NCBI GenBank assembly: GCA_052033715.1 | Contig: JBPOJJ010000003.1 | Location: 52,383-116,382 of the forward strand | Direction of reading: 5' to 3' | Source of the DNA: Patescibacteria group bacterium | GTDB lineage: Bacteria; Patescibacteriota; Minisyncoccia; Phycocordibacterales; CSBR16-119 | Length of the DNA: 64,000 bases | In this document: piece by piece, positions 4,244 to 48,644 of the stretch | How positions within the stretch are numbered: the first letter of the stretch is position 1 | How the letters are laid out: the number at the start of each line of letters is the position of its first letter | The notes under the pieces: generated by a model | What the model was told of the DNA's origin: nothing | The model's database searches: none | The model's input: only the letters and a program-made list of their open reading frames with translations | Translations under genes and position numbers: made by a program

Positions 4244-5500
4244 ATGAGACAAACAAAACTATTTACCAAGACCCGCAAAGAGGCCCCAGCGGATGAGACT
4301 TCAAAGAATGCCGAACTTTTGATCCGCGCTGGTTTCGTGCACAAAGAGATGGCTGGGGCCTATTCATATTTACCGCTTGGTCTCAGGGTTCTCAAAAATA
4401 TAGAAAAAATAATCCGCGAAGAAATGGATGCGATCGGCGGACAAGAACTTATCATGACAGCTTTGCAGAGGAAAGACGTTTGGGAAAAAGTTGGCCGATG
4501 GGACGATAATCTCGTCGATGTGTGGTTCAAAACGAAATTAAAAGATGGCGCTGATTTGGGTCTCGGCTTTACTCATGATGAGCAGGTTGTAAATCTGCTG
4601 ACTGAATATGTAAATTCGTATAAAGATTTGCCTCTATACGTCTATCAGATCCAGACAAAGTTTCGAAACGAACTTCGTGCCAAATCAGGCGTTATGCGCG
4701 GTCGCGAGTTTGTGATGAAAGATTTGTATTCTTTTGATACGAGCGAGGAGGCGCAGGACATGTTCTACGAAAAAGTAAAAAAAGCCTACATGAAAATCTA
4801 TTCCCGTTGCGGGATTGGCCACAAGACTTACATCACTCTTGCGACTGGCGGAACTTTTTCGCAATACTCTCATGAATTCCAAACCATATCTGAAGCCGGC
4901 GAGGACGTTATATTCTTGGACGAAGAAAAAAATATAGCAGTCAATCAGGAAATCACCACGGACGAGGAGCTTGCGAAGCTCGGTATCGAGAAAAAGAACT
5001 TGGTTGAACACAAATCCGTTGAGGTTGGAAACATATTCAAGCAGGGCACAAAATTTACAGATCCTTTTGATCTGAAATACAAAGACAGCGACGGAGAAAT
5101 AAAATCTATTTACATGGGAGGTTATGGTATTGGTGTTACGCGCTTGATTGGCGTTATCGCCGAAGTTTTATCAGACGACAAAGGAATGATCTGGCCAAAG
5201 GAAATCGCGCCGTTTGCTGTGCATTTGATTGCGGCTGGAAATGATGAAAACGTTTTAAAGACCGCCGAAGAAATTTACACTAATCTGACGAATGCTGGAA
5301 TCGAAGTTCTGTTTGACGATCGTGACACGGGCGCAGGAGAGAAATTCAATGACTCGGATTTAATCGGCATCCCCGTCCGCGTTGTTGTCGGAAAGAGATC
5401 TCTAGAAGCTGGCGAAGTCGAGATTAAAGAACGCCGTGATGAGAAGACGAAGATGGTCAAGATCGAAAGTATTGTAGAAGAATTAAAAAATTATGTTTGA
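4244..5500 (+). CDS. proS: prolyl-tRNA synthetase (short bacterial form without editing insertion)
   Basis: Class II aaRS ProRS motifs (YSYLPLGLRVLKNIEKIIREEMDAIGGQE...FRNELRAKSGVMRGREF). Confidence 0.9.
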   Translation: MRQTKLFTKTRKEAPADETSKNAELLIRAGFVHKEMAGAYSYLPLGLRVLKNIEKIIREEMDAIGGQELIMTALQRKDVWEKVGRWDDNLVDVWFKTKLKDGADLGLGFTHDEQVVNLLTEYVNSYKDLPLYVYQIQTKFRNELRAKSGVMRGREFVMKDLYSFDTSEEAQDMFYEKVKKAYMKIYSRCGIGHKTYITLATGGTFSQYSHEFQTISEAGEDVIFLDEEKNIAVNQEITTDEELAKLGIEKKNLVEHKSVEVGNIFKQGTKFTDPFDLKYKDSDGEIKSIYMGGYGIGVTRLIGVIAEVLSDDKGMIWPKEIAPFAVHLIAAGNDENVLKTAEEIYTNLTNAGIEVLFDDRDTGAGEKFNDSDLIGIPVRVVVGKRSLEAGEVEIKERRDEKTKMVKIESIVEELKNYV

Positions 5501-22462: not shown

Positions 22463-22503
22463 AATCCCTGCACTGATTTGACAAATCATTAAAACTATGT
22501 AAT

Positions 22504-23970: not shown

Positions 23971-24072
23971 AAACTCCAAACCCAGCTTTCAAATTGTTTC
24001 AATTTTTGTACGGGCCCAGTAAAATTCTTCTTCCACACTCTAAAAACAGCCTAGTCTGTTAAAATTAGATCA

Positions 24073-25983: not shown

Positions 25984-26064
25984 ATATCAAAAGGTTTACA
26001 AAAAACAAGTTTTTGTTTATAGTCTTTCGTGAACCAGGAACAAACCATATAAACCCGCAAGGTC

Positions 26065-26421
26065 ATGCACACCGCAGCAATGAAAATTCCAGTGTCTGTG
26101 CCTTTAGCCAGACCCGAGGAGGTCGAGTCCCCAACTGACCCGATGTCTCAAAGGACAAAAAGGCAAAGGCAGATCTACGACAACGGCTCCTACCAATTCA
26201 GGCACCTTATCCTTGTTGTCCTCAAAACCAACAAGAGAGGCAGGGCTGGATACGACACCACAACCCACTTTGTGCTCAGGGATTACCCAGATCTGAGGTG
26301 GGAAGAAGAGAAGGAGTTCGTGCGTGAGCTGCTCAAGAAGCACCATCCTGGACTCTATAAGCGTCTGGAGACCAATAAGTGGATATGGGTGAAGCCTGAA
26401 CCAAAGAAGAAACTCGCTTAA
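26065..26421 (+). CDS. hypothetical protein (GC-rich orphan; start uncertain)
   Basis: ~52% GC; strong terminator immediately downstream; no recognisable domain. Confidence 0.4.
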   Translation: MHTAAMKIPVSVPLARPEEVESPTDPMSQRTKRQRQIYDNGSYQFRHLILVVLKTNKRGRAGYDTTTHFVLRDYPDLRWEEEKEFVRELLKKHHPGLYKRLETNKWIWVKPEPKKKLA

Positions 26422-26437
26422 CCGTGTCCTTTCGTCG

Positions 26438-26481
26438 TAAAGCGCCCCCTGACCTCACCAGTCGGGGGCGCTTATCGTTTT
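26438..26481 (+). terminator. rho-independent terminator
   Basis: aagcgccccc...gggggcgctt long stem followed by atcgtttt. Confidence 0.6.
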
Positions 26482-26521
26482 AAATAAGGTTTTTTAAAAT
26501 TTATCTCGATAAAAAGTCGTT

Positions 26522-26603
26522 TTGACAGCCAAATCAAAAAAAGTAGAATTAACGAAAATGTTGGGGTAGATTGCTTGACAAATGAAATGTCTTGCCGTAT
26601 AAT
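26522..26603 (+). promoter_or_regulatory. two tandem sigma70-like promoters (TTGACA-16-TAGAAT and TTGACA-17-TATAAT) with ~150 nt leader
   Basis: Exact consensus hexamers at 26575-26580 / 26598-26603; weaker pair at 26522-26527 / 26544-26549. Confidence 0.5.
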
Positions 26604-26761
26604 CCCGCCATAAAGATTCGAACGTCTTTTTCGCTCGAATTTGTAAAAAAGATTGTTTGATGAGATGGGAGGCTTGAAACCTTTCGAATAATCTTGTCTG
26701 GCAACCAATGTAGTTCAATTCGTTTATTAATTTTGCGTTTATTACTAAAAAATATTTTATT

Positions 26762-29416
26762 ATGAAGAATTTTAAGATTAAAAATCTATCGAAAAGAGCG
26801 CTTCTCGGCGTCTTTGTTTTTCAGTTTGCAGTAACAACCTCTTTCGCCCCGATAATCGCGCGAGCTCAGGTGGTAACCGAAGAGATGGCCGTTGATACGG
26901 TGGAAACTGTGGCTGAACCTGTAGAAATCAGTACCTCTGAAGAAGTTGTCGTAGAAGAAACAACTACAGACGTACCTGAAGGCGAAACAACAACTCCTTC
27001 CGGTGAGGAAACCACCGAACCAGAGGCAAAGACCGAAGAAAAGTCATTTTCTGTTGTTGGTGGCGGCGGACACGATCCCGTTGATATCTGCCACGCAGCC
27101 GGCCAGAGCGGTAATTACATTTTTCTTACAGTCGACGACGATGGTGCATACGGAGGACATGGCGGTCATGAAAATGACATCTTGCCAATTACTGATGTCA
27201 ATGGTGACAGGGAAATCAATCAAGCCGATTGTGATTATCAGGCTCCGGAAGAAGAATCTTGCGATGCTTCAATAAACCTATTTGATAACTCGGGATTTGA
27301 AAATCCGGTTCTTCCTGGATCTTGGAACATCTATGCTGATGGAACATCTGGTTTGGCTTGGGATGTCGAGTGGCAAGCTGGCTCTGGCGACAACACTCCT
27401 GCCAAAGCCGAATTGCAACAGATCTACACTGCTCACTCTGGCGAACAATATTTAGAACTAGATTCTGATTTTGATGGACCAGGGGGATCAATTTCAAACG
27501 AAGAAGCTTCTACTCGAATCTCCCAAACTATTACGACTGTTCCTGGACAAGAATACGAAATCTCATACTTCTATTCTGCTCGACCTGGATATGGATACGA
27601 TGACAACAAGGTTGGTCTATATATTGATGGGTTCCCTTGGGATCTTTCTGTAACGACTAATGGCGTTGGTGACTCAGATACTTTTTGGGCACAGAAATTC
27701 AATCATTTTACAGCTGATAGCACTTCTCACACGATAACTTTTGCTGATCTTGGAACAGCTAATTCTTTTGGAATGTTTCTAGATGATATGCGTGTAAATT
27801 GTGTCGAAGAAGATGGCGGTGGTGACGACGACAAGAATACTCCTCCAGACATTGATGTCGTTCCAGAAATTATCGAAGTTTTCATCGGTTCAGTTTGTGA
27901 CGAAGCGCTTATAATGGGTGGCGTTACGGCTGATGACCTTGAAGACGGTAATCTAACAAATGAAATCGAATATGCTGGAACTGTCAATTGTAATGTTCTG
28001 GGCGACTATCCAGTGACTTACAATGTCGAAGATTCCGAAGGGCTCCCAGCCGAAGAGGAAACTCGTATTATTCGCGTTGTAAATAATGACGACGAAGAAG
28101 AAAATCCTTCTTGTGATTCACAGGCAATTTGGGCTCGAGTCGTCGTTACTTCATACTCAAATGTCGGTGCGGGTGATATGACCAACACTATCTACCTCGG
28201 TTCTTCGATCAACACTGTCACTACAGGAGAATGGTTCCCGGTTTCTCCGGCAGATGTTCAGAATATAGAAAACTTCGCGGACGTATCAGGACTCGCTGTT
28301 AAAAGACGAGTAGACAACAAGATCGTTCTTGAACTTCACGGAAGTCATCTTCCAAAAGGAACTGGTAAGGAATACGCCGATGGGTATATTGAATTCTTTA
28401 ATGCTGTACCAAGCGTTCTTGTGGGTGCAACTGGTCAGAATAAACTAGAACTCAATGGAGATAATGAAATTGGCCACCAGGATATTGTTTGGATTGATGG
28501 AGATAAGGCAAATTTCAATCTCGGAGTCGGGACAGCCGATGATCGATTCTCTACAACCTATACATATTCTCTAGACGAAGAGTGCGATGACGATGGCGGT
28601 GGAGACAATAACAATCCTCCGGCTATCGTTTTGGCTGACGAGTGTATCCTTTGGTCAGAAGAATCTTTCAATTTCACATCTGGCGTTACAACATCAGATG
28701 CTGACGGAGATACAGTTAACCTTACTTACGTAGTTAGCCCTGATCCAATAGTTTTTGGTCAAGATGGAACTTATACAATCACTTATACTGCTGATGACGG
28801 AGAAGACACCACGGTCGTCTCAAAGACTCTAACCATTGATGAAGATTGTGAAGAGGACAATGGGGGTGGCGGAGGTGATGACGAAGAGGACAATGGCGGC
28901 GGAGGCGGTGGAGGTAGTTCAGGAAGTATTCTTGGCGGCGGAGGTTCAAACAGACAAGGTGAAGTCTTGGGTGCCACAACTGCGGCTTGTGCACAATTCA
29001 CTCAGTATCACGATACTGGAAGTACTCAGAGCGAAGTCAGAGCTCTCCAGACATTCCTAAACGAATACATGGATGCGGGACTTACAGTGAACGGAACTTA
29101 CGACTGGGCAACGACTCAGGCAATACATGACTTCCAGGCTTTGCACTGGGATGCCATCATCAAACCATGGCTTGGTTCACCAAGTAAAATCAGTCCGAAC
29201 ACAACTGGCCGAACCCGACAGACGACAACTCAGGCTTTGAACTTCATCATCAACTGTCCAAATGATGCCATGTATCTAGAAGATCCTCAGATTTTCTACA
29301 AACTTACTGAAATCAAAAACAAAAAAGAATTTTCCGCGGATCAAATTATGAAGATAACGAATATCTTGGATGAAGTTCACGGAATAGTTCTCGGAGCTGA
29401 GGCAATGGAAAAATAA
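26762..29416 (+). CDS. large secreted protein with five parts: acidic Thr/Glu-rich linker; Cys/His N-module plus jelly-roll-like domain; two Ig-like (DUF5011-like) domains; Gly-rich linker; C-terminal peptidoglycan-binding-like domain
   Basis: Signal peptide; VDICHAAG...H..H motif; LFDNSGFENPV...FLDDMRVNCVEE; TADDLEDGNLT; GGGGG runs; ALQTFLNEY...DGTYDWATTQAIHDFQ. Confidence 0.85.
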   Translation: MKNFKIKNLSKRALLGVFVFQFAVTTSFAPIIARAQVVTEEMAVDTVETVAEPVEISTSEEVVVEETTTDVPEGETTTPSGEETTEPEAKTEEKSFSVVGGGGHDPVDICHAAGQSGNYIFLTVDDDGAYGGHGGHENDILPITDVNGDREINQADCDYQAPEEESCDASINLFDNSGFENPVLPGSWNIYADGTSGLAWDVEWQAGSGDNTPAKAELQQIYTAHSGEQYLELDSDFDGPGGSISNEEASTRISQTITTVPGQEYEISYFYSARPGYGYDDNKVGLYIDGFPWDLSVTTNGVGDSDTFWAQKFNHFTADSTSHTITFADLGTANSFGMFLDDMRVNCVEEDGGGDDDKNTPPDIDVVPEIIEVFIGSVCDEALIMGGVTADDLEDGNLTNEIEYAGTVNCNVLGDYPVTYNVEDSEGLPAEEETRIIRVVNNDDEEENPSCDSQAIWARVVVTSYSNVGAGDMTNTIYLGSSINTVTTGEWFPVSPADVQNIENFADVSGLAVKRRVDNKIVLELHGSHLPKGTGKEYADGYIEFFNAVPSVLVGATGQNKLELNGDNEIGHQDIVWIDGDKANFNLGVGTADDRFSTTYTYSLDEECDDDGGGDNNNPPAIVLADECILWSEESFNFTSGVTTSDADGDTVNLTYVVSPDPIVFGQDGTYTITYTADDGEDTTVVSKTLTIDEDCEEDNGGGGGDDEEDNGGGGGGGSSGSILGGGGSNRQGEVLGATTAACAQFTQYHDTGSTQSEVRALQTFLNEYMDAGLTVNGTYDWATTQAIHDFQALHWDAIIKPWLGSPSKISPNTTGRTRQTTTQALNFIINCPNDAMYLEDPQIFYKLTEIKNKKEFSADQIMKITNILDEVHGIVLGAEAMEK

Positions 29417-29430
29417 TAAATTAAAAGAAA

Positions 29431-29470
29431 GAGAAAATCCCCCGCGTCTGACGTGGGGGATTTTCTCTTG
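29431..29470 (+). terminator. strong rho-independent terminator
   Basis: gagaaaatcccccgcg-tctga-cgtgggggattttctc. Confidence 0.65.
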
Positions 29471-29486
29471 CTCCTATCATAAACAC

Positions 29487-29495
29487 TGGTATAAT
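29487..29495 (+). promoter_or_regulatory. extended -10 element TGGTATAAT
   Basis: TGnTATAAT match ~20 nt upstream of the 29516 start. Confidence 0.4.
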
Positions 29496-29515
29496 TTAAC
29501 CAAGTCAAATATTTC

Positions 29516-30019
29516 ATGCAAACTCAAAGCTTCCATCGAAGTAAATACAATATCTGTTGGATCTCCGTACTGGTGATCTTTGTCGGTACGATTATTTATC
29601 CGATTAGTTTTGAGCGCGCAGATAAAAAAAGCCATACTCCTGTCGTCCAGTCTGTCACGCCGACTTTTTCGTTTCCGACAGTAGAAGTTACTCCAATAAG
29701 AAATTATCCAACCACTGTCAAAACTGAAACCATAAAACCGGTAACTTCATCCAAACTAATTTTTACTCGCGATCTGAAAATAGGGGACAAGGGCCCAGAC
29801 GTGAAAAAACTTCAGCAATATTTGAATCAGCGCGGATTTATCGTAGCAACCTCTGGTAATGGTTCTCCGGGACAAGAAAGTGAATTATTCGGTCCAGGAA
29901 CACAAAACGCACTCAAGCGTTTTCAGGAAAGTTATGCAGAGATACTTCTCAAGCCCTACGGATTATCAGAAGGGACGGGATTTTTCGGGGAAGTTACGCG
30001 AAAATTCGTTAATTCATAA
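29516..30019 (+). CDS. membrane-anchored protein with peptidoglycan-binding-like domain
   Basis: N-terminal TM; GDKGPDVKKLQQYLNQRGF...FGPGTQNALKRFQ. Confidence 0.7.
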   Translation: MQTQSFHRSKYNICWISVLVIFVGTIIYPISFERADKKSHTPVVQSVTPTFSFPTVEVTPIRNYPTTVKTETIKPVTSSKLIFTRDLKIGDKGPDVKKLQQYLNQRGFIVATSGNGSPGQESELFGPGTQNALKRFQESYAEILLKPYGLSEGTGFFGEVTRKFVNS

Positions 30020-30029
30020 AGATTATTTC

Positions 30030-31253
30030 ATGAAGGATTTTCTAAAAATTTTAGTTGTTATGTCGATAATCTGCCCGACATTTCTGTTGGCGCAGACACC
30101 CACTGTTCCAGACGCTCCTTTGAATTTACTGGGTCGTTCGGCAGCTAAAGAAATTTACGTTCAGTGGGATGTTCCATTAAGTGACGGCGGTTCAGCCATA
30201 GACGGATATAACTTAAATTACAGAGAAGGGAATAGCGGTGTCTGGATGTCGTCGTTTACAACACTGACAAACTATACACTATCGAGTTTGACACAGAACA
30301 CAGAGTATCAGATTTTTGTCACGGCGGTTAATATCGTAGGAGAAAGTCGGCCGTCGGAAACCATAAACATACAGCTTGGCCCGTTTGATGAAGAAGATAC
30401 GGTGTCCCCGGTTGTAGTTGGAGAGATTGTCGTATCAAATATTTCCAACGATGGAGCGACAATTACTTGGACCACAGACGAACCGACCACCTCGGCAATT
30501 TATTATGATGTTCATCGCGAAGATCAACATGGTCTTGTTATCGGTGCAACATTAACGACCGAACATCAGATTGATTTGTCGGGGCTGATTTCTTGCTCAG
30601 AGTATTTCTTTGTTGTTGGAGGAGAAGATGCGAGCGAAAATTTTTACACGAGTAGCGTAGAAGAATTTGAAACATCTGGTTGTGTTGGGCAAGTTACATC
30701 CCAGGATGTTGGAGATCTTGTTCCGCCAGATAGTGTGAATACGTTTTCTTTTGAAAATGCCAAAGTTGAAATCGTTGCTGGTCCTGGAATAGTCGATCGA
30801 GATGCTGTATTTCAAGTAAAAAGATTGAGTGTCTCTTCTGTTGACGGAGAAGTGGGTTGTCCAGTCGATGCAAAACCACTGGGAGAGAATATTTATGACA
30901 TAAAACTCTTAGATAATTATGATTCTGTGGCGAGTATTCGAGAACCCGTCACCGTAACGATAGATTATGGCGATGAGGACATAGATAATATAAAAGAAGA
31001 AAGCTTGTCACTCTATCATTATGCCGAAGGTGTGGGTTGGCAAAAACTAAATTCTTGCTCGGTAAACAAAGAAGAGAAAAAAATAACTTGTGAGGTTCAG
31101 AATTTCTCAAAATTTATGGTTGCCGTAGAAGAAAATTGTGATTCAGAACAAAATAACTGGTTTTTTTCTAAATTTGATTCGTTTTTTTCCAAAATAGACC
31201 ATAAAATAAAGACTTTTTTCTGGGGAAAGATAATGGGCATGAAGGTATTTTAG
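30030..31253 (+). CDS. secreted fibronectin-type-III repeat protein
   Basis: Signal peptide MKDFLKILVVMSIICPTFLLAQT; FN3-like segments (PDAPLNL...YQIFVTAVN; ATITWTTDEPTTSAIYY); start reassigned from overlapping ORF. Confidence 0.75.
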   Translation: MKDFLKILVVMSIICPTFLLAQTPTVPDAPLNLLGRSAAKEIYVQWDVPLSDGGSAIDGYNLNYREGNSGVWMSSFTTLTNYTLSSLTQNTEYQIFVTAVNIVGESRPSETINIQLGPFDEEDTVSPVVVGEIVVSNISNDGATITWTTDEPTTSAIYYDVHREDQHGLVIGATLTTEHQIDLSGLISCSEYFFVVGGEDASENFYTSSVEEFETSGCVGQVTSQDVGDLVPPDSVNTFSFENAKVEIVAGPGIVDRDAVFQVKRLSVSSVDGEVGCPVDAKPLGENIYDIKLLDNYDSVASIREPVTVTIDYGDEDIDNIKEESLSLYHYAEGVGWQKLNSCSVNKEEKKITCEVQNFSKFMVAVEENCDSEQNNWFFSKFDSFFSKIDHKIKTFFWGKIMGMKVF

Positions 31254-31287
31254 TCCTTGATTTTTAAATCTTTCATGTTATAATATA

Positions 31288-32352
31288 GTGGTGAAAAAAA
31301 CCTTAAAGAAATATTTTATCCCACACGCGGAGAATGAACACAAACCGCATATTTTGCGCGAACGCGCCGTTTTGTCGATAGCACTTGTCGTCGTCGTGCT
31401 CTTTGCGGCCTCAGTCCTCGGTACTTATGCGGTAAAAAATATAAAATTTTTGGCCGCCATCCAATCAGCTTTTCTTGTCGATCTGGCCAATGAAGACCGT
31501 GCCGATCTTGGCCTCAAACAACTTGCCATAAACGATAAACTTGTAAATGCCGCTACCCTCAAAGCCGCCGACATGGCCGAAAAAAGTTATTTTGCACACA
31601 TCAGTCCAGAAGGTAGAACGCCTTGGTACTGGATTCAGCAAGCTGGCTACACATACATTTATGCCGGCGAAAATTTGGCTGTGAATTTCGATGACTCGGA
31701 AGATGTCGAGCGCGCTTGGATGAATTCACCTACTCACAAGGCGAACATTTTAAATAATAGATACACCGAAATCGGCATCTCGACCGCCGTTGGAACCTAT
31801 AAGGGCAAAAAGACAACTTTTGTCGTCCAGATGTTTGGTACCCCGAGGAAATCAGTGATCAGTAATATTGAAACAAGCTTATCTCCGAGGGTTGCCGAGG
31901 CCTCAGAGACTAGACCCGCAATAAACCCTGAAAGCAACACCGCTTCTATAGTGGTCGTAAAGGTTCCGGAAGAAGAACCTGTTCCAGAAGCTATTGTCAC
32001 GGCCCAGGAAGCTACTTCTGTAGAGGAAGGAAATTTTATGTCTTTCACCAATCCAGAAGTATCTCCCGAAGAACTTGCTCAAGTCGAAGAAGTGGATAGT
32101 ACCGATCAAAAAGTAACTTATACTAATTGGTTCGAGCGCGTCCTTGTGTCGCCTTCGGTTGTAGTTAAAAATATCTATTTCGTTCTTGTCGCCCTCATAA
32201 TTTTCTCTCTGATATTGAAAATATTTATCGAGATTCGTCTTCAACATCCAAGGAATATTGCTTATGGAGTAATACTACTTGCCATAATACTAATTTTTAT
32301 GTATTTAAATTCTAGCGTGGGACCCGCTACCACCATTGTCGTCGCATCTTAG
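31288..32352 (+). CDS. CAP/SCP (YkwD-like) domain protein with N- and C-terminal TM helices (GTG start)
   Basis: YFAHISPEG...AWMNSPTHKANILNNRYTEIGIS CAP signature. Confidence 0.75.
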   Translation: MVKKTLKKYFIPHAENEHKPHILRERAVLSIALVVVVLFAASVLGTYAVKNIKFLAAIQSAFLVDLANEDRADLGLKQLAINDKLVNAATLKAADMAEKSYFAHISPEGRTPWYWIQQAGYTYIYAGENLAVNFDDSEDVERAWMNSPTHKANILNNRYTEIGISTAVGTYKGKKTTFVVQMFGTPRKSVISNIETSLSPRVAEASETRPAINPESNTASIVVVKVPEEEPVPEAIVTAQEATSVEEGNFMSFTNPEVSPEELAQVEEVDSTDQKVTYTNWFERVLVSPSVVVKNIYFVLVALIIFSLILKIFIEIRLQHPRNIAYGVILLAIILIFMYLNSSVGPATTIVVAS

Positions 32353-32479
32353 GATAATTGAAATAAGGCCTTGTTTTTTGCGTCATAAGGGGTAGACTAG
32401 TAATGATTTTATTGGTCTTTTTAAGGGCCAATTTTAAGGGGTTTTACTAAGTAGATTATCATTAAAAAATAAGAACATT

Positions 32480-33886
32480 ATGAAAAATATTTTATCAAAA
32501 GGTTTTGGGGTATTGGTTATGTTTGCGATGACTTTCAACGTCGCCTTGGCCACACCCTCTTCGCAAATTACTATTTGTCATTTTCCACCAGGAAATCCTA
32601 ATAATCCGCAGACGATAACCATAAGCGCTAATTCCTGGAACGCGCATCAGTCGCACGGTGATTATCAGGGAGAATGCGAGGGGGAAGAAAATATTCCGGT
32701 TTGTGATATCGAAGAAAATTTGATTTACAACGGTGGTTTCGAGTCTCCGGTCGTAACGGCTGGTCAGGGCTGGGATGTTTATCCAAACGGCACTGCTGGA
32801 CTTGGATGGAGTGTCGCTTGGAACGGGGTTTTTGCTGGTGCACCGGCCGTAGCAAATCTTGAACTTCATCGGGGGGTGAATGCTTGGGTGCATGATGAGG
32901 GTATGCAGCATGCAGAACTTGATACTGACTGGGTTGCCGGAGGTTCAGAACAAGCATCAGTTGTAATTTCTCAAGACATCGCAACGATACCCGGAGCAAC
33001 ATATGAATTGTCTTATGCATTCTCTCCACGACCAGGAACCGGAGCCGCAGAAAATGTTTTAGAAGTTTTGGTTGATGGATCACTCGTCCAAACCCAAGGT
33101 CCTGTTGCTGGAGGAGGAAATACATCTTGGACAACACATACTTACAATTTTGTTGCAGATGGTTCGACAACAACGATTGCTCTACGAGATGCCGGAACAC
33201 CGAATACACTTGGAACTTTCCTTGACGACGTTTCTGTTCGATGTGTCGAAGAACCAGAAGAATGCGAATTGTTGTATGCTCGCATTAGAACTGCTGAACG
33301 TGGGTGGTGGAACAATTGGGGGACTGGAAATTTGGGCGCCTGGAATACAAAGGGTGTAGCCAATCCTCCGGTTTATGTTGGAGGAAATAATCTTCTACAC
33401 AATTCTCTTGGCGGAGACGGTTACACATCACAAGAATGGTTCCCGCTCGTCGATGAAGAAACTTGTGAAGCAATTGTTGATGAAGAATTCAACTTTGACC
33501 TTCCTGGTCTTGCCGTTCAAAGACTTGACGGATCACTTCGAGTTGTCCTTTACGGATCACATGACGCTGGTGAAGATCCAGCACGTCTTCTGAATCGAGA
33601 GTTCGCAAGAGGATACATTGAACTTTCAAAAGACATGGTTACGAAATTGACGGGGGCATGGGACAAGTCAAACGGTTGGGTTGATCCAGTGGATACCTAC
33701 ACTCGTATTCATGATCCTCTTGTAAATGATGCTGCTAATCCAATGGATGCACGCGGTTCATTTAATGGCTCTATTCACATACACCATCCACTCTATGATA
33801 ATGTAAAGGTTTTGGGCGATTTGTTTAGATTCCATCTCGTTGTTACTACTGGAAATGATGGATTCTACGCAAAATACAATAACTAA
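32480..33886 (+). CDS. secreted protein paralogous to the N-terminal half of the 26762 gene product (Cys/His module plus jelly-roll-like domain)
   Basis: Signal peptide; ITICHFPPGNPNNP...H..HGD; LIYNGGFESPV...FLDDVSVRCVEE. Confidence 0.8.
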   Translation: MKNILSKGFGVLVMFAMTFNVALATPSSQITICHFPPGNPNNPQTITISANSWNAHQSHGDYQGECEGEENIPVCDIEENLIYNGGFESPVVTAGQGWDVYPNGTAGLGWSVAWNGVFAGAPAVANLELHRGVNAWVHDEGMQHAELDTDWVAGGSEQASVVISQDIATIPGATYELSYAFSPRPGTGAAENVLEVLVDGSLVQTQGPVAGGGNTSWTTHTYNFVADGSTTTIALRDAGTPNTLGTFLDDVSVRCVEEPEECELLYARIRTAERGWWNNWGTGNLGAWNTKGVANPPVYVGGNNLLHNSLGGDGYTSQEWFPLVDEETCEAIVDEEFNFDLPGLAVQRLDGSLRVVLYGSHDAGEDPARLLNREFARGYIELSKDMVTKLTGAWDKSNGWVDPVDTYTRIHDPLVNDAANPMDARGSFNGSIHIHHPLYDNVKVLGDLFRFHLVVTTGNDGFYAKYNN

Positions 33887-33904: not shown

Positions 33905-33935
33905 AAACTCCGGCCCTGGTCGGGGTTTTTAGTTT
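33905..33935 (+). terminator. candidate terminator
   Basis: ctccggccctggtcgggg imperfect hairpin followed by ttttt. Confidence 0.4.
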
Positions 33936-33970
33936 TGGAAAAAGCCTTATTTTGCGGTATTATCTAGGCT

Positions 33971-35794
33971 ATGGCAGATACTTACGACCACAAATCCATC
34001 GAAGCTAAATGGCGAGAAATATGGGCCAAAGACGGGATTTACAAGACTTCCGAATCTTTCTCCAAACCTAAAAAATATGTTCTTGATATGTACCCTTATC
34101 CGTCCGGAGAGGGTCTTCATGTCGGTCATCCAAAAGGCTATATTGCTACCGACGTTTACGCGCGAATGTCGCGTATGCAGGGCTTTAATGTTCTTCATCC
34201 AATGGGCTGGGATGCCTTTGGACTTCCAGCCGAACAATTTGCGCTCAAAAATAAGGTACATCCGAAAATTTCTGTTGCCAAAAATATTGCACGTTACAAA
34301 GAACAGCTTCAAATGGTTGGGCTTGATTACGATTGGTCGCGAGAGATAAATACAACGGATTCGGAATATTATAAATGGACACAATGGTGTTTCGTCAAAA
34401 TGTTTGAAAAAGGTTTAGTCTATCAGTCTAATGAACCGATTAATTGGTGTCCTTCTTGTAAAACCGGTCTTGCAAACGAAGACTTAGAGGATGGTAAATG
34501 TGAACGATGCGGATCAGAAATTGAACAGAAGCCTTTGGCCCAGTGGGTTATTCGCATCACCGATTATCGTGATCGCTTGGTTGAAGATTTAAATTTACTT
34601 CCAAAATGGCCGGAGTATGTTAAAACAAGCCAGAAAAATTGGTTGGCCAATCTTCGCGACTGGGTTTTTGCCAGACAGCGTTATTGGGGTGAGCCAATAC
34701 CCCTTATTCACTGTGAGAAATGTGGAACTGTCGCCGTGCCAGAAAAAGATTTACCAGTCAGACTTCCAGAAGTTGTCAATTACGAACCAACTGGCACGGG
34801 CGAGTCGCCGCTTGCTGGGATAACAGATTGGGTGAATACAACTTGTCCGAAGTGTGACGGAGTAGCCAAGCGTGAGACAAACACGATGCCACAATGGGCG
34901 GGCAGTTCTTGGTATTACTTGCGTTACATGGATCCGAAAAATTCTGATGCCATTGTCGACAAAGAAAAAGAAAAATATTGGAACAGTGTTGATGTGTATG
35001 TCGGGGGCATGGAACACGCAACTAGACATCTCATATATGCTCGTTTTTGGCACAAATTCCTTTATGACATTGGAGTCGTGTCGACCAAAGAACCATTCGA
35101 GGAACTTCACACCGTAGGGCTTATCCAGGCCTCTGATGGACGCAAGATGTCCAAACGTTGGGGCAATGTTGTCAATCCAGACGAGATGGTGGAACGTTTT
35201 GGCGCCGACGCATTTCGACTTTATGAAATGTTTATGGGGCCATTTGAACAATCAGTTGCTTGGAATACCGATGGAGTCGTCGGCACAAAAAGATTTTTAG
35301 AGAGGGTTTGGAAGATGAGAGAAAATCTTAGTGACTCGAACGAGGAAAATCACACAAACCTTCAAAAGATGATAAAAAAAGTCGGTGAAGATATCGTTAA
35401 CTTCAAATTTAATACGGCCGTTTCAACCATGATGATTTTTTTAAATTCTTCATCCGATATTTCTGCTTTAGATTATAAAGATTTTATAAAAATTCTTGCA
35501 CCGTTTGCACCGCATTTGACCGAAGAAATCTGGTATGGGCTTGGCGAAACAGAATCAATTCACGTATCAGATTGGCCACGATACGACGAATCAAAAATCA
35601 AAGACGACAAAGTAAAAATCGTTATACAGGTTAATGGCAAGCTCCGTGACGAGATAGAAGTTGATGTTGGAACTTCTGAAGACGAGGTGAAAAGTCTTGT
35701 TTTAGCGCGAGAAAAAGTTGTAGAGAAAATCGCTGGAGCATCAATCAAGAAATTTATCTATATCGAGAACAAGCTCGCTAATATCGTCATCTAA
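33971..35794 (+). CDS. leuS: leucyl-tRNA synthetase, CP1 editing domain absent
   Basis: HVGH (GLHVGHPKGY), zinc knuckle, KMSKR; sequence runs from NWLANLRDW directly into FARQRYWGEPIP with no ~190-aa CP1 insert; 607 aa. Confidence 0.9.
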   Translation: MADTYDHKSIEAKWREIWAKDGIYKTSESFSKPKKYVLDMYPYPSGEGLHVGHPKGYIATDVYARMSRMQGFNVLHPMGWDAFGLPAEQFALKNKVHPKISVAKNIARYKEQLQMVGLDYDWSREINTTDSEYYKWTQWCFVKMFEKGLVYQSNEPINWCPSCKTGLANEDLEDGKCERCGSEIEQKPLAQWVIRITDYRDRLVEDLNLLPKWPEYVKTSQKNWLANLRDWVFARQRYWGEPIPLIHCEKCGTVAVPEKDLPVRLPEVVNYEPTGTGESPLAGITDWVNTTCPKCDGVAKRETNTMPQWAGSSWYYLRYMDPKNSDAIVDKEKEKYWNSVDVYVGGMEHATRHLIYARFWHKFLYDIGVVSTKEPFEELHTVGLIQASDGRKMSKRWGNVVNPDEMVERFGADAFRLYEMFMGPFEQSVAWNTDGVVGTKRFLERVWKMRENLSDSNEENHTNLQKMIKKVGEDIVNFKFNTAVSTMMIFLNSSSDISALDYKDFIKILAPFAPHLTEEIWYGLGETESIHVSDWPRYDESKIKDDKVKIVIQVNGKLRDEIEVDVGTSEDEVKSLVLAREKVVEKIAGASIKKFIYIENKLANIVI

Positions 35795-35796
35795 TC

Positions 35797-37521
35797 ATGG
35801 TCAAACGAGTTTTTAATCTTTTAAATCGCGAGTTCAAAAACATCAACCAGGCAGCGATAATTTTGGGGTTTTTCACGCTACTATCTCAGATTCTTGGGCT
35901 TGTCAGAGATAGATCTTTTGCGCACTTTCTTGGGCCATCATCAAGCCTGGACGTTTACTATGCGGCATTTAAAGTGCCAGATTTTATTTTTATGTCAGTG
36001 GCTTCGCTTGCCTCAGTTACTGTCATACTGCCGTTTTTGGTAGATAAACTCGGTGTTCGAGAAGATGGGGAACTAAACGGTAATTCTGTCGCAGCAAAAA
36101 AATTCTTAAGCGAAACATTCACCGTGTTTTTGATTGCGATGATTTTGGTTTCCATGGTCGCTTTTATCTTTATGCCAAGCCTAGTCAAACTTGTGGCGCC
36201 TGGATTTTCTGGTGCGGAACTTAAAGACCTGGTGATGCTAAGTCGCATCATGGTGCTCTCTCCCATATTTTTAGGACTTTCAAATCTATTTGGTTCGGTC
36301 ACGCAAATGTTCAAAAAGTTTTTCGTCTTTGCCCTTAGTCCTTTGTTCTATAACTTGGGAATTATTCTGGGAGTAATTATCTTCTATCCAATTTTTGGAC
36401 TTCCTGGACTTGCTTATGGAGTTGTTTTGGGCGCCCTTTTGCATCTTTTTATCCAATTTCCGGTATTGGCTAAACAGGGATTTTTGCCGAAAATTTCTTT
36501 AAAGATTTCTTGGAAAGACCTGCGAGAGATGGTTGTGATTTCTCTCCCGAGAACCATTGGATTGTCGCTGTCAACACTTTCTCTTATCGCGATCGTAGCC
36601 ATTGCTTCGCTTATTGGAACTGGTTCAATTTCCATTTTCCAGTTCTCATTAAATCTCCAAAACGTACCGCTCGGTATCATCGGTATTTCGTATTCGGTTG
36701 CGGCTTTTCCGACGCTCGCTCGGTTTTTCTCCTCTGATCGGATCAAAGATTTCGTCGAGTATATTGCTGTGGCAGCCAGACAAATAATGTTCTGGTCCCT
36801 TCCGGTGATGTTTCTTTTTATCGTCTTACGTGCCCAAATCGTGCGTGTCATTTTAGGAACTGGTAATTTCTCTTGGGACGATACCCGTTTGGTTGCAGCC
36901 TCGCTTGCGCTTTTCGCCATCTCCATTACGGCTCAGAGTCTGATCCTACTTTTCACTCGTGGGTATTACGCGGCAGGCAATACCAAGCGTCCACTTTTTA
37001 TAAATTTTTTCTCTACCGCCGTAACAATTGTCTGCGCTTTTTGGTTCGTCGATATTTTTCGAACAATTCCTACTATTCAATATTTCTTTGAGTCACTTTT
37101 ACGTATTGAAAATATTAAACATGCGGAGATTGTAATGCTTCCGCTCGCATATTCTGTCGGCGCAATTTTAAATGCCTTCTTGCTTTGGTTTTATTTCCGT
37201 CGGGACTTCAAGATCGAAAACAAAAAAGAGTCTTTCTTGGCTAAATCTTTTTTTCAGAGTTTCGTGGCGGCGTTTTTCGTTGGAGATATTGCCTACGTAT
37301 TTCTTGGGGTGTTCGATAATGTTTTTGATATAAATAAATTCTGGGGTATTTTGGGTCAAGGATTTTTTGCTGGAATTATCGGAATTTTCGCCGGATATAT
37401 AATTCTCAAAGTTTTGGATAACGAACAGATTGAGCAAATAGAAAAAGCTTTCAAGATAAAGAGATTCTGGAAAACCGACGTTGTTAAAGAAAGCGAGGAT
37501 GAACTCCACACCTTGTCATAA
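35797..37521 (+). CDS. murJ: lipid II flippase MurJ/MviN
   Basis: 14-TM profile; MurJ N-terminal LLSQILGLVRDRSFAHFLG. Confidence 0.88.
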   Translation: MVKRVFNLLNREFKNINQAAIILGFFTLLSQILGLVRDRSFAHFLGPSSSLDVYYAAFKVPDFIFMSVASLASVTVILPFLVDKLGVREDGELNGNSVAAKKFLSETFTVFLIAMILVSMVAFIFMPSLVKLVAPGFSGAELKDLVMLSRIMVLSPIFLGLSNLFGSVTQMFKKFFVFALSPLFYNLGIILGVIIFYPIFGLPGLAYGVVLGALLHLFIQFPVLAKQGFLPKISLKISWKDLREMVVISLPRTIGLSLSTLSLIAIVAIASLIGTGSISIFQFSLNLQNVPLGIIGISYSVAAFPTLARFFSSDRIKDFVEYIAVAARQIMFWSLPVMFLFIVLRAQIVRVILGTGNFSWDDTRLVAASLALFAISITAQSLILLFTRGYYAAGNTKRPLFINFFSTAVTIVCAFWFVDIFRTIPTIQYFFESLLRIENIKHAEIVMLPLAYSVGAILNAFLLWFYFRRDFKIENKKESFLAKSFFQSFVAAFFVGDIAYVFLGVFDNVFDINKFWGILGQGFFAGIIGIFAGYIILKVLDNEQIEQIEKAFKIKRFWKTDVVKESEDELHTLS

Positions 37522-40162: not shown

Positions 40163-41023
40163 TTAAATCTTCCTTATTTCTCCCATTGTTTCTTGTATGT
40201 GGCCTTTGATTTCGAGAAGGGAAAGAAACATATTGAGGTCGGTTACGGAGCCCGGATATTTTTGCATCAAGAGTTCTTTCGGCATTGGTTCGTAGAGTAA
40301 TTCGAGGATGACAACTTCTTCGGGCGTACAATTGTCATAGTTCTTACCGACATTTTCTTGGGCCTTGAATCCGAGGATTTCCAAAACCTCTTTGGCCCCG
40401 AGACATGGATGCGCACCTTCTTTGAGAAGCTTGTTGGTGCCGATGGATGTAGGGCTTCCTATGTCGCCTGGTACGACCAAGACGTCGCGGTTGTAATCCA
40501 TGGCGAGCCTTGCCGTGATTAGGGTTCCGGACTTTTCTTCGGCCTCTATTAATAGAACCGCGTCAGCGAGTCCCGCCATGATGCGATTGCGACGTGGAAA
40601 AGTCCACTCGGCCGCGATAGTTTTTGGTGGAAGTTCCGAAATCAAGCACCCGTCTTTTTTCAAAATCTCTTTGGCTAAAGCGAAGTTGCTTTTTGGATAC
40701 AAGAATTTCTCATCAAGTCCGGATCCGGGAACTGAAAGTGTTACAAGTCCATTACGAATCGCCGTCTCATGAGCAATGGTGTCGATTCCGAGTGCCAATC
40801 CTGAGACTATGACGATCGGATATCCAGCGAGTCCTTGGATAATTTTTTCACAAGCCGCTCGGCCGTAATTGCTATGCTTTCTTGATCCGACCACAGCCAA
40901 AAACTTCACTTCCGGGTCATCAAAGTCGGGAAGCTTGCCTGAAAAATATAGTTCCTTTGGGGGGTCTGGGATTTCTCCCAAGCGTTTAGGAATCGACGAG
41001 AGTTTTTTAATCTCGTAGGACAT
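40163..41023 (-). CDS. dprA: DNA processing protein DprA/Smf
   Basis: Rossmann-like LAVVGSRKHS...GIDTIAHETA...VLLIEAEEKSGTLITA. Confidence 0.88.
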   Translation of the reverse strand: MSYEIKKLSSIPKRLGEIPDPPKELYFSGKLPDFDDPEVKFLAVVGSRKHSNYGRAACEKIIQGLAGYPIVIVSGLALGIDTIAHETAIRNGLVTLSVPGSGLDEKFLYPKSNFALAKEILKKDGCLISELPPKTIAAEWTFPRRNRIMAGLADAVLLIEAEEKSGTLITARLAMDYNRDVLVVPGDIGSPTSIGTNKLLKEGAHPCLGAKEVLEILGFKAQENVGKNYDNCTPEEVVILELLYEPMPKELLMQKYPGSVTDLNMFLSLLEIKGHIQETMGEIRKI

Positions 41024-41058
41024 TGGCCTTAATTATAGCAATTTTGTATAATAGCGAA

Positions 41059-42321
41059 ATGTTAGATATCAAATTTATTCGGGAAAACAAAGACATCGTC
41101 ATCTCTGGAGCCAAGAAAAAATTGGTCAAAATTGATATTGATGAACTCATAAAGATTGATGACAAGCGTCTGGCTCTTCTTTCAGAAGTCGAAACTTTGC
41201 GTGCCAAACAAAATTCTGTTTCTGATCGAATGTCTCAACTCACAAATCCTTCCGAAAAAGCCGAACTCATCAAATCAATGCAAGTTCACAAAGAAGATTT
41301 GAAGGCTAAAGAAGAAGAACTAAAAGCGATCATGGAAACTTGGCGAGATTTAATGTTACGAGTTCCGAATATCCCAGAACCAACTTCTCCAGAGGGTGCA
41401 TCCGAAGAAGAGAACGTCGAGATTCGCTCGTGGGGGGTTAAGCCAGAATTTGATTTCACTCCGAAAGGCCATGTGGAAATAATGACGGCACTCGGGATGT
41501 TAGATGTTGATCGCGGAACAAAAGTTCACGGATTTCGCGGATACTTTTTGACTGGCGATGGAGTACGATTGTGTTTTGCAATTTGGAATTATGCGCTCGA
41601 CTTTTGGAGCAAGCGTGGATTCAATCCGATTATGCCACCGATAAATGTCAGGCGCGAGCCATTACTCGGCTGCGCATTTATCCCACAGGGTGAAGCAGAT
41701 ATTTATAAAGCCCAAGACGAAAGTTATTTTGTCGGGACTTCCGAGGTTCCGCTTATGGGGATGTATATGAATGAAATTTTGGACGGTTCGACATTGCCGA
41801 TAAAGATGCTTGGCTTTTCTCCATGCTTTCGTCTCGAAGCTGGAAGTCACTCCAAAGACATCAAAGGTCTTATCCGTGTTCATGAATTTTACAAGTTTGA
41901 ACAAGTCGTTTTGTGCGCTGGTAGTCACGAAGAATCCGTTAAACATCACGAAGACATCCAGAAGAATATTGAAGAATTCATCCAGTCGTTTGGCATTCCG
42001 TACCAAGTGGTTGATGCTTGTACCGGAGATATGGGGTTTGCTAAGGTTCGTATGTACGACACGAACTTATGGGTCCCGCAGGAACAGAAATATCGTGAGA
42101 TTTCTTCGGCCTCATATTTTCACGATTTTCAGACTCGCCGATTGGGAATTCGTTACCGCGATGCAGAAGGCAAAACAAACTTCGCTCACTCACTAAACTG
42201 CACTGCCATCCCGACTCCACGAATCCTCGTATCACTCATCGAGAATTTCCAGACTGCCGACGGACATATCCGCATTCCGGAAGCTCTACAAAAATACTTC
42301 GGCAAAGATTTAATCTCTTAA
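41059..42321 (+). CDS. serS: seryl-tRNA synthetase
   Basis: N-terminal coiled-coil arm, class II motifs; start trimmed to MLDIKFIREN. Confidence 0.92.
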   Translation: MLDIKFIRENKDIVISGAKKKLVKIDIDELIKIDDKRLALLSEVETLRAKQNSVSDRMSQLTNPSEKAELIKSMQVHKEDLKAKEEELKAIMETWRDLMLRVPNIPEPTSPEGASEEENVEIRSWGVKPEFDFTPKGHVEIMTALGMLDVDRGTKVHGFRGYFLTGDGVRLCFAIWNYALDFWSKRGFNPIMPPINVRREPLLGCAFIPQGEADIYKAQDESYFVGTSEVPLMGMYMNEILDGSTLPIKMLGFSPCFRLEAGSHSKDIKGLIRVHEFYKFEQVVLCAGSHEESVKHHEDIQKNIEEFIQSFGIPYQVVDACTGDMGFAKVRMYDTNLWVPQEQKYREISSASYFHDFQTRRLGIRYRDAEGKTNFAHSLNCTAIPTPRILVSLIENFQTADGHIRIPEALQKYFGKDLIS

Positions 42322-46024: not shown

Positions 46025-46191
46025 GTCACAAATCACTAAGTCTTTTATTTCGCTTCGCTCATAAAATCCAAAGTGTTCGCGACCCCGTCTCGGCACTTCA
46101 TCCTGCTTTGGCAGGCGTGCCTGCGATCTTCTCGTCCTTCAGAAACAGTCATGTAAATTTTGCTGGAATAGCCCAGACAAAATTTTCATAG

Positions 46192-46262
46192 CTGCGGGAC
46201 TAGGACTCGAACCTAGATACCCAGGACCAAAACCTGGTGTCCTACCATTAGACGATCCCGCA
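46192..46262 (-). tRNA. tRNA-Gln (anticodon UUG), U1:A72, discriminator G73, no encoded CCA
   Basis: Reverse complement TGCGGGA...CCAGG-TTTTGGT-CCTGG...CTAGG-TTCGAGT-CCTAG-TCCCGCA-G cloverleaf. Confidence 0.88.
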
Positions 46263-46362
46263 ATTCGTTTATTTTGCCTCAAAATTATCTTTTAATCAAG
46301 AAAAAAGTAACTCTTGCCAAAAACTGTTTCAGGGCGTAGATTGAATACGAAAAACAACACTG

Positions 46363-46827
46363 ATGCCCAAACCAAACAGCCCAGGTTATGTCGTGGTTTC
46401 TTTCCTTGAGGATGAACCACCGCGTTTTTTCCTAAAGGGTGATTGGCCACTTCATGTGACCATCGCGCCACCTTTCGTCTTCTCGAGGGACTTTCAGAAG
46501 CTCGTCTTTCTGCTCGAAGAGGTCTCAGTTGGCCTAGCCCCATTTCGGACAGTCGGAATTCGTCGCGATCTATTCGGCAAGAACAAGGACGTGCCGGTCA
46601 CGTTGGTCGAAAGCGTTCCTTCGCTGGTGACCTTGAACAGGAAATTCATTGGAACTGCTTCATTGTGGGTCGAGTTTCGAGGGATAGATCACGGAGGGTA
46701 TCGGCCGCATGTTTCAGATCAGTTGTGTGGAAGACTGGACGTCGGGCAATCGATCATACTCGGCTCTGTCTCGCTAGTCGAGATGCGGCGAGACGAACGT
46801 CGTATTGCTCACACACTGGTGTTCTGA
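46363..46827 (+). CDS. 2H phosphoesterase superfamily protein (LigT / 2'-5' RNA ligase-like)
   Basis: Two H-x-T/S-x motifs (PLHVTIAPPF and YRPHVSDQL) about 90 aa apart. Confidence 0.5.
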   Translation: MPKPNSPGYVVVSFLEDEPPRFFLKGDWPLHVTIAPPFVFSRDFQKLVFLLEEVSVGLAPFRTVGIRRDLFGKNKDVPVTLVESVPSLVTLNRKFIGTASLWVEFRGIDHGGYRPHVSDQLCGRLDVGQSIILGSVSLVEMRRDERRIAHTLVF

Positions 46828-46844
46828 TTGTCCGCTCGCATCAA

Positions 46845-46890
46845 GGTAGCCCCGCCGTATTCTCGGCGGGGCTTCCGTGTTTTATGCAAG
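46845..46890 (+). terminator. rho-independent terminator
   Basis: agccccgccg-tattct-cggcggggct then tccgtgtttt. Confidence 0.6.
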
Positions 46891-46943
46891 CTAATTTCCG
46901 CGCACAATGTTACACTGAAATTAAACGAACACAGGACATAAAC

Positions 46944-47996: not shown

Positions 47997-48002
47997 AGTA
48001 AC

Positions 48003-48045
48003 GCGGCCCTGTCATAGAGCAGGGCCGCTCTTCTTTTTAAATATA
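48003..48045 (+). terminator. terminator of the desaturase gene
   Basis: gcggccctg-tcatagag-cagggccgc then tcttcttttt. Confidence 0.6.
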
Positions 48046-48047
48046 AA

Positions 48048-48085: not shown

Positions 48086-48090
48086 CAGGC

Positions 48091-48632: not shown

Positions 48633-48644
48633 AAAGGATCTTCG

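Follow-up and report, generated by a model that had tools for sequence, protein, structure and literature searches.

A bacterial-type leucyl-tRNA synthetase lacking the CP1 editing domain in a member of the Patescibacteria

Introduction

Natural loss of editing by leucyl-tRNA synthetases (LeuRS) is already known from reduced, host-dependent organisms. Here we compare the described cases with the product of a leuS gene located at positions 33971..35794 (+ strand) of a 64-kb stretch of DNA, referred to below as the window, from an ultra-small, uncultivated Patescibacteria bacterium (contig JBPOJJ010000003.1 of assembly GCA_052033715.1). In the LeuRS of Mycoplasma mobile (MmLeuRS), the CP1 editing domain is replaced by a nonapeptide (227-KEEIDGKIT-235) and the leucine-specific domain (LSD) by a tetrapeptide (398-GKDG-401), and the enzyme still aminoacylates (PMC3643597). 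M. mobile has been reported to misincorporate amino acids at Leu and Phe codons at frequencies of up to ~1 in 200 (PMC3553970), and tRNA-independent pre-transfer hydrolysis has been reported for chimeras constructed on the MmLeuRS scaffold (PMC3643597). The editing domain is also deleted from the LeuRS of the microsporidian Vavraia culicis, for which Leu-codon mistranslation of up to 5.9% was measured (PMC7373986).

The view that translational quality control is given up by organisms restricted to a host relies in large part on these documented CP1-less enzymes. A different state is represented by human mitochondrial LeuRS, which is full-size but has a decayed CP1. The original prediction for this locus held that LeuRS without an editing function is known only from a few reduced genomes. 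This is true of the published cases, which are M. mobile (PMC3643597, PMC3553970) and the microsporidia (PMC7373986), but it does not describe the Patescibacteria, in which such enzymes are not rare: 35 of the 120 best homologues of the window enzyme are CP1-less. A full-text literature search found no report of CP1 loss in LeuRS of the candidate phyla radiation (CPR)/Patescibacteria, and an earlier mention in the survey of Melnikov et al. 2018 (PNAS) is possible. Judged from the sequences, the new elements would be a separate origin in another phylum, a form without any linker and the recurrence of the loss in that phylum.

The leuS product and the CP1 junction

The open reading frame (ORF) 33971..35794 (+) begins with ATG, is uninterrupted, shows no frameshift and encodes a 607-aa protein. 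The protein matched the NCBIfam equivalog TIGR00396 (leuS_bact, class Ia) with 772.2 bits (cut-off 548.4), the match being broken into three stretches because of the missing modules. Pfam scanning revealed tRNA-synt_1, tRNA-synt_1g and Anticodon_1, and no match to PF13603, the LeuRS editing domain, within the 607 residues. All three signatures named in the original prediction (HVGH, a zinc knuckle and KMSKR) were found, at residues 50-53, 160-180 and 392-396, respectively.

To describe their conservation we used an alignment of 53 Patescibacteria LeuRS sequences, which was also the basis of an AlphaFold2 model. HVGH, the local form of the HIGH signature (34118..34129, +), occupies invariant columns of this alignment, as do KMSKR and the substrate-binding residues Y43 and D81. 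The preceding amino-acid-binding motif MYPYPSG (residues 40-46; 34088..34108, +) carries the clade-specific change F41Y discussed below. The ZN-1 zinc knuckle, C160-x2-C163...C177-x2-C180 (34448..34510, +), has invariant C160, C177 and C180, and in a second Cys4 motif (C248, C251...C292, C295; 34712..34855, +), located in the CP2-side insertion, C248, C292 and C295 are invariant and C251 is conserved in >=90% of the sequences. The anticodon-binding helical domain PF08264 (residues 463-570; 35357..35680, +) is followed by a C-terminal tRNA-binding domain (residues ~547-607; 35609..35791, +), which aligns to Thermus thermophilus LeuRS up to residue 876 and to MmLeuRS up to residue 637 and has a beta-alpha-beta arrangement in the model. 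Both of these domains are folded in the model (pLDDT 85.9, pTM 0.83). By its sequence, the product is a complete bacterial-type LeuRS with the catalytic and tRNA-binding apparatus and without the hydrolytic editing module.

The extent of the missing part was defined by phmmer comparison with T. thermophilus LeuRS (1h3n), in which residues 4-227 corresponded to Tt 3-226, residues 226-388 to Tt 417-580 and residues 389-607 to Tt 634-876. Position 226/227 of the window enzyme is therefore equivalent to Tt 226/417, and ~190 residues (Tt 227-416, the CP1 domain) have no counterpart, as had been predicted. A MAFFT alignment with the 120 best homologues placed the beginning of the CP1 gap exactly past residue 226. 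The deletion junction NWLA/NLRDW (residues 223-231; 34637..34663, +) has its break between codons 226 and 227 (nt 34648/34649) and contains 0 linker residues, compared with ~190 aa in canonical enzymes. The protein passes from NWLANLRDW into VFARQRYWGEPIP; the residue next to the motif is V, and FARQRYWGEPIP occupies positions 233-244. The presence of a divergent CP1 was not borne out, since the profile alignments (Pfam, phmmer) run contiguously across the junction. In the AlphaFold2 model, helix 215-226 leads through a 4-residue loop (227-230) into strand 231-235, and CP1 would thus have been excised at the base of the two strands that tether it.

The second missing module is the LSD (Tt ~581-633), whose place is taken by the tetrapeptide ASDG (387-390), followed by R391 and KMSKR (392-396; 35129..35158, +). 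The LSD is absent from all Patescibacteria LeuRS of the 120-homologue alignment, with or without CP1 ('GLI.A.DGRKMSKR'). Since CP1-bearing relatives share this absence, the loss of the LSD preceded the loss of CP1 in this lineage.

A further difference in the active site was observed in the helix-capping segment GGMEHATRH (residues 351-353), which reads T-R-H throughout the 53 aligned sequences, R352 without exception and T351 almost without exception. MmLeuRS has V-L-H at these positions, and the equivalent segment of Neisseria gonorrhoeae LeuRS (NgLeuRS), GIEHAILH (L550-H551), undergoes a catalytic peptide-plane flip. The T-R-H variant is lineage-wide in Patescibacteria LeuRS, regardless of their CP1 status.

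Comparison with MmLeuRS and other described enzymes

Among solved structures, the best sequence match was that of MmLeuRS (3ziu), aligned by phmmer in one contiguous stretch (E 2e-169). The same entry was the best structural match (Foldseek E 1e-57; TM-score normalized to the query, TMq, 0.81 and to the target, TMt, 0.80, or 0.85 for chain B), with mutual coverage. Canonical LeuRS structures covered the window enzyme well, but ~40% of their own chain remained unmatched (TMt ~0.6).

The two enzymes are both of the bacterial type, without CP1 and LSD, and both come from small-genome, host-dependent bacteria. They also share a DG tetrapeptide ahead of KMSK: ASDG in the window enzyme and GKDG in MmLeuRS (GKDG-Q-KMSKS; PMC3643597). 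In contrast, the nonapeptide KEEIDGKIT of MmLeuRS has no equivalent at the zero-residue junction, the protein is 30 aa shorter (MmLeuRS has 637 aa) and residue 41 is Tyr instead of Phe. Compared at this level, the window enzyme is more reduced than MmLeuRS.

The resemblance to other systems is more limited. The microsporidian enzymes likewise represent a natural loss of editing in a reduced, host-dependent organism, but they belong to the eukaryotic/archaeal type, with CP1 inserted elsewhere in the CP1 hairpin (PMC4138327), and to an unrelated lineage. A second group comprises the Patescibacteria LeuRS with linkers of 10-11 residues (P0019, P0015, P0028, P0049, P0085 and, from 'Ca. Nomurabacteria', L002). 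These enzymes from the same phylum have also lost CP1, but unlike the window enzyme they keep a hairpin remnant (REEHDGKVTY, KEIDENGKVSY or similar) closely resembling the M. mobile nonapeptide. In a third group, full-size LeuRS with a decayed CP1 (P0026, P0027, P0053, P0054 and others), post-transfer editing has presumably been lost or weakened while the domain itself is kept, whereas in the window enzyme the domain is gone.

Integrity and conservation of the leuS locus

Contigs of metagenome-assembled genomes (MAGs) may hold collapsed regions, and the NCBI label of similar short proteins goes no further than 'class I tRNA ligase family protein'. These points would speak for the reading that the gene is a pseudogene in decay or an artefact of assembly or annotation. 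The uninterrupted ORF and the conservation of all catalytic residues argue against it, as does the occurrence of the same junction in >20 independent assemblies. A protein identical to the window enzyme is present in the database, from a 117-kb contig of an NCBI assembly, and 24 homologues with 75-90% identity come from NCBI, JGI, ENA and Logan assemblies, none of them with PF13603. The named homologues are assigned to Wolfebacteria, Nomurabacteria, Paceibacteria and Minisyncoccia.

Comparison of leuS with two orthologues at the DNA level gave a nonsynonymous proportion (pN) of 0.12-0.14, far below the synonymous one (pS), which is saturated at 0.75-0.88. This indicates strong purifying selection on the gene and speaks against a pseudogene. 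On these sequence comparisons, an artefact, a frameshift or a pseudogene can be regarded as excluded for practical purposes.

The locus of P0019 (79% identity) was recovered in three independent assemblies, and its gene order is the same as that of the window: CAP-domain gene, leuS, murJ, topA (-), dprA (-), serS, hypothetical gene, dus, holB. The murJ gene (lipid II flippase; 35797..37521, +), the conserved downstream partner, starts 2 nt past the leuS stop codon. Upstream, a terminator-like hairpin of the preceding gene (33912..33927, +) precedes a promoter-like element, TTGGAA-17-TATTAT (33935..33963, +), which ends 7 nt before the leuS ATG; this element is a consensus match only, and the count of such matches does not exceed that expected from shuffled sequence. 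No clear Shine-Dalgarno sequence was seen ahead of the ATG. The arrangement suggests a separate, possibly leaderless, transcript start for leuS-murJ.

Origin of the CP1-less form

In a neighbour-joining (NJ) tree computed with CP1 masked, M. mobile formed a long outgroup branch, and the clade containing the window enzyme (P0001-P0024) was monophyletic and embedded among CP1-bearing Patescibacteria LeuRS. The window enzyme is 61-67% identical to these CP1-bearing relatives, compared with 42-44% to 3ziu. The nesting of the clade among CP1-bearing sequences indicates that its CP1 was lost independently of Mycoplasma. The phylogeny thus places the loss within the Patescibacteria, so that what is shared with MmLeuRS is the architecture and not the lineage.

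Three clade members (P0015, P0019, P0021) read NWIG-REEHDGKVTY-NLRDW or similar at the CP1 site, and several other lineages have peptides of 10-11 residues, such as KEIDENGKVSY. In sequence they resemble the terminal parts of the two strands that tether CP1 in full enzymes (RSEG...GGKxxTTY), and common descent would then not be needed to account for their likeness to the M. mobile nonapeptide. The sequences suggest that the history of the site probably involved two steps, from CP1 to a 10-residue hairpin remnant and from this remnant to nothing.

At five positions the clade differs consistently from 59 relatives with an intact CP1. The most notable of these changes is F41Y in the MFPYPSG motif, and the others include A150V, L194I and S234A. 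Residue 41 is Tyr in 22 of the 23 clade members (P0020 keeps Phe), and it is Phe in 59/59 intact-CP1 relatives, in 10/10 other CP1-less sequences and in M. mobile. In NgLeuRS, the amino group of leucine is held by F41 through its backbone carbonyl and by D80, the equivalent of D81 in the window enzyme, through its side chain, and Y43 stacks on the substrate (PMC9424281). By this alignment F41Y sits at the synthetic site, where it may affect selectivity.

The tree also bears on whether the short gene is an accessory paralogue serving, for example, resistance or regulation, with a canonical LeuRS elsewhere in the genome doing the housekeeping. Specialized LeuRS duplicates do exist: the agrocin-immunity enzyme AgnB2 (PDB 5ah5) is one, and Natrialba magadii has two LeuRS (PMC4005665). 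However, the window enzyme nests in the ordinary Patescibacteria LeuRS tree and does not form a separate paralogue branch, and strong purifying selection acts on its gene, whose housekeeping neighbourhood (murJ, topA, serS) is conserved. A pattern-based scan of the L001 assembly found one LeuRS locus, which is a weak indication, since close relatives are picked up preferentially by the patterns used. In the small genomes of Patescibacteria, synthetases are rarely duplicated. We consider an accessory role highly improbable.

CP1-site states in Patescibacteria LeuRS

In order to compare the CP1 site across the 120 best homologues, we counted the residues between the NWIG and DWVFSRQRYWG anchors. 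The results revealed a graded series of states: (i) 0 residues, in the clade of the window enzyme and separately in P0051 and P0070, (ii) 10-11 residues, in 11 sequences of several lineages, (iii) 112-160 residues, representing a truncated CP1, (iv) ~172-215 residues, representing a full-size CP1, in most cases with intact TTRPDT and GTGAIMAVPAHDERD motifs, (v) ~187-198 residues, a full-size CP1 in which the threonine-rich motif is decayed (e.g. SAYPAW) and HDERD is kept, and (vi) 250-447 residues, made up of CP1 plus inserted extra domains. Among reference genomes, L001 has 0 residues at this site, L002 has 10, and L034, L053 and L077 have 108 each. An exhaustive search of 1.84 billion representatives clustered at 50% identity added further short LeuRS (P0235, of 608 aa and with NWIA/QMRDW at the junction, P0196, P0185, P0244, P0246 and P0232); no representative in it had 20-100 residues at the CP1 site, which leaves a gap in the range of sizes. 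The natural series (0, 10-11, 108-160, ~190 and >250 residues) could be used to dissect the contributions of the tether and the domain to aminoacylation.

In an NJ tree without support values, CP1-less forms occupied at least three well-separated places, and probably more, the lineages P0028, P0049/73/116, P0064/71, P0050 and P0051/70 being interleaved with CP1-bearing sequences. This distribution suggests that CP1 has probably been lost several times independently in the Patescibacteria.

Other modifications of the site were recorded in the course of this comparison. The truncated CP1 of 108-118 aa (P0030, P0033, P0048, P0065, P0089, P0108; loci L034, L053, L077) keeps TTRPDT and, in several cases, HDERD, and is without ~40 middle residues and the C-terminal part. 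In another set, TTRPDT is replaced (e.g. by SAYPAW or NAHFEA) within a full-length CP1 that keeps GTG...HDERD (P0026, P0027, P0032, P0043, P0052-54, P0060, P0075, P0077, P0092, P0097, P0099, P0106, P0110, P0113). These replacements suggest a decayed or altered editing specificity with retention of the domain. Oversized CP1 regions of 250-665 residues, present in many Patescibacteria LeuRS (P0029, P0036, P0041, P0076, P0080, P0218, P0268; loci L004, L023, L027, L036, L045, L078) contain, nested in or beside CP1, Pfam domains of the NUDIX (once or twice), serine hydrolase/alpha-beta hydrolase, GNAT, nucleotidyltransferase and DUF559/MTES_1575 endonuclease-like types. We know of no earlier description of enzyme domains nested at the CP1 site of LeuRS.

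Database names of the short enzymes can be uninformative: NCBI gives P0216 (MEK6818349.1) and P0273 (MHB8928785.1), both CP1-less LeuRS, no more specific name than 'class I tRNA ligase family protein', and the MAGs behind two NCBI-named short LeuRS carry the labels Bacillota and Nanoarchaeota.

Search for a split gene or a trans-acting editing factor

Editing could in principle be supplied in trans, by a free-standing CP1-like deacylase or by the missing half of a split gene encoded elsewhere in the genome. Such arrangements are established for other synthetases, namely YbaK and ProXp-ala for prolyl-tRNA synthetase (ProRS) and AlaX for alanyl-tRNA synthetase (PMC4014445, PMC11415595), and the window is a small part of the genome. 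However, the junction has the form of a clean in-frame deletion and not of a gene split, and no CP1 signal was detected in the window: the top tblastn match of 13 CP1 domains of relatives, among them intact, decayed and truncated ones, had an E of only 0.026, and a hidden Markov model (HMM) of 47 CP1 domains reached no better than E 2.4 when run on the 64 kb translated in six frames. This does not support the possibility, raised with the original prediction, of an adjacent ORF encoding the missing domain. The same HMM detected nothing in the ~10-kb flanks of the CP1-less loci L001, L002 and L081-L083, whereas positive-control loci were recovered with E 8e-68 and 3e-30. The proposed search for free-standing editing factors, carried out within the window, revealed no YbaK, ProX, AlaX or DTD-type protein in Pfam scans of the 40 larger ORFs. 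We know of no description of a LeuRS CP1 that exists as a free-standing protein. Editing in trans is thus, in our estimation, very unlikely.

The tblastn matches at 46298-46348, 46977-47312 and 63722-63910 were judged to be due to chance (E >=0.026, <=27 bits); none has profile support, and each falls within an unrelated ORF or opposite one. A split LeuRS of the Aquifex alpha/beta type, or a free-standing CP1 nearby, was also rejected, as no CP1-coding ORF occurs in the window or in the flanks of its relatives.

Function and fidelity

We consider it most likely that leuS encodes a housekeeping LeuRS cut down to its catalytic minimum, from which CP1 was excised within the Patescibacteria independently of Mycoplasma. 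Several points weigh against this interpretation. The genome is seen only through the 64-kb window, and a second full-length LeuRS or a free-standing CP1 may be encoded elsewhere. The linker of MmLeuRS reportedly matters for its activity (Tan et al. 2013, Biochem J); since the window enzyme has no linker at all, its activity cannot simply be extrapolated from MmLeuRS. Whereas MmLeuRS has been characterized biochemically and proteomically (PMC3643597, PMC3553970), the window enzyme is known from its sequence and a predicted structure. Finally, the order of the 10-residue and 0-residue forms within the clade differs between two NJ trees, which leaves the two-step history no more than plausible.

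The enzyme is expected to activate leucine and to charge tRNA-Leu, whereas CP1-dependent post-transfer hydrolysis of Nva- (norvaline-), Ile- and Met-tRNA-Leu would be impossible. If, as seems likely, this is the only LeuRS of the cell, fidelity at Leu codons would rest on the synthetic site alone, possibly assisted by tRNA-independent pre-transfer hydrolysis. The original prediction named tolerated mistranslation or trans-editing as the consequence. Mistranslation may be tolerated, as it is in M. mobile, or the synthetic site may have become more discriminating, with F41Y as a possible cause. By analogy with the described enzymes, we infer leucylation and the absence of post-transfer editing, and mistranslation of Leu codons may be raised.

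A relaxed need for editing is a plausible reason why its loss would be tolerated. Patescibacteria generally lack the branched-chain amino-acid pathway. In E. coli, norvaline, a by-product of the cell's own branched-chain pathway, is said to be the main threat countered by LeuRS editing (a finding attributed to Cvetesic et al. 2014). The same role of norvaline has been described in yeast (PMC5499588).

A variant of the preferred explanation is that fidelity has been kept without CP1. The synthetic site would then have been retuned (F41Y together with A150V, L194I and S234A), so that either the activation step or tRNA-independent pre-transfer editing keeps out Nva, Ile and Met, and mistranslation would not be raised. 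The presence of Tyr41 in the clade (22/23 members, compared with 0/59 intact-CP1 relatives) is in line with this idea, as is the contact between the backbone of residue 41 and the substrate amino group in NgLeuRS (PMC9424281); loss of an editing domain can, moreover, accompany higher substrate specificity, as in ProRS without the INS domain and in mitochondrial phenylalanyl-tRNA synthetase (PMC11415595). On the other hand, Phe41 is kept by ten other CP1-less sequences and by M. mobile, so that the change is no general correlate of CP1 loss, and it is also kept by clade member P0020; an effect of the Tyr41 hydroxyl on the side-chain pocket is conjectural. We regard retention of fidelity in this way as rather unlikely.

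If, as we prefer to think, post-transfer editing is absent, the enzyme should not deacylate Nva- or Ile-tRNA-Leu and should be intrinsically insensitive to benzoxaboroles acting via the CP1 site, and Leu-codon substitutions should be visible in metaproteomes. The finding would add to M. mobile and the microsporidia a case from the Patescibacteria/CPR radiation in which the same solution arose independently and the reduction went further than in MmLeuRS.

Editing-less ProRS in the same window

The window also contains proS (4244..5500, +), which encodes a 418-aa bacterial-type ProRS without the INS editing domain (no PF04073). Aligned with Enterococcus faecalis ProRS, residues 1-266 corresponded to 1-265 and residues 256-408 to 403-555, and about residues 266-402 of the E. 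faecalis enzyme were skipped. All 120 best ProRS homologues (Parcubacteria/Patescibacteria) had 400-455 aa and no PF04073; the lack of INS is thus uniform in the group and is the older trait. The INS-less ProRS of the bacterial type (NF008979 type; PDB 2i4l) represents an analogous clean loss of a cis-editing insertion, but ProRS belongs to class II and its editing fold is different, and its INS-less state is uniform in the Patescibacteria, whereas the loss of CP1 from LeuRS is patchy. Another synthetase gene of the window is serS (41023-42321); we know of no organism in which seryl-tRNA synthetase has a cis-editing domain. A cis-editing domain is thus absent from both synthetases of the window that normally have one, LeuRS and ProRS.

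It is conceivable, and we offer this tentatively, that LeuRS proofreading is evolutionarily dispensable across the Patescibacteria, CP1 having been repeatedly deleted, truncated, decayed or used as a docking site, with ProRS uniformly INS-less. The radiation would then have statistical proteomes at Leu codons or a novel solution to the fidelity problem, such as a Y41 synthetic site. The phylum-wide dispensability and remodelling of LeuRS proofreading are only partly supported by the observations presented above. If this is true, no natural scaffold of a bacterial LeuRS would be smaller than that of the zero-linker enzymes.

The NCBI name of similar INS-less ProRS is 'aminoacyl--tRNA ligase-related protein'. 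With such generic names, leuS and INS-less proS, both essential genes, may be taken for absent when genomes are assessed automatically.

Other features of the window

Directly upstream of leuS, the region 19463-33886 contains a run of seven or eight genes, all on the same strand, whose products are large proteins of the secreted or surface kind, with CarboxypepD_reg, beta-helix, PD40/Kelch with PG_binding_1, Ig-like, fn3, CAP and DUF642 domains. The CAP and DUF642/Ig-like members of this run are also present at the orthologous locus L081.

No rRNA was found in the window by Rfam scanning, and the 64 kb contain no tRNA-Leu gene. A tRNA-Gln gene (46191-46262, -) marks the beginning of a region (46191-50000) with a GC content of 0.49-0.51, compared with ~0.43 elsewhere. 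This region contains a fatty-acid desaturase ORF (46443-47996) and overlapping ORFs, and it may be a horizontally acquired island inserted at a tRNA gene.

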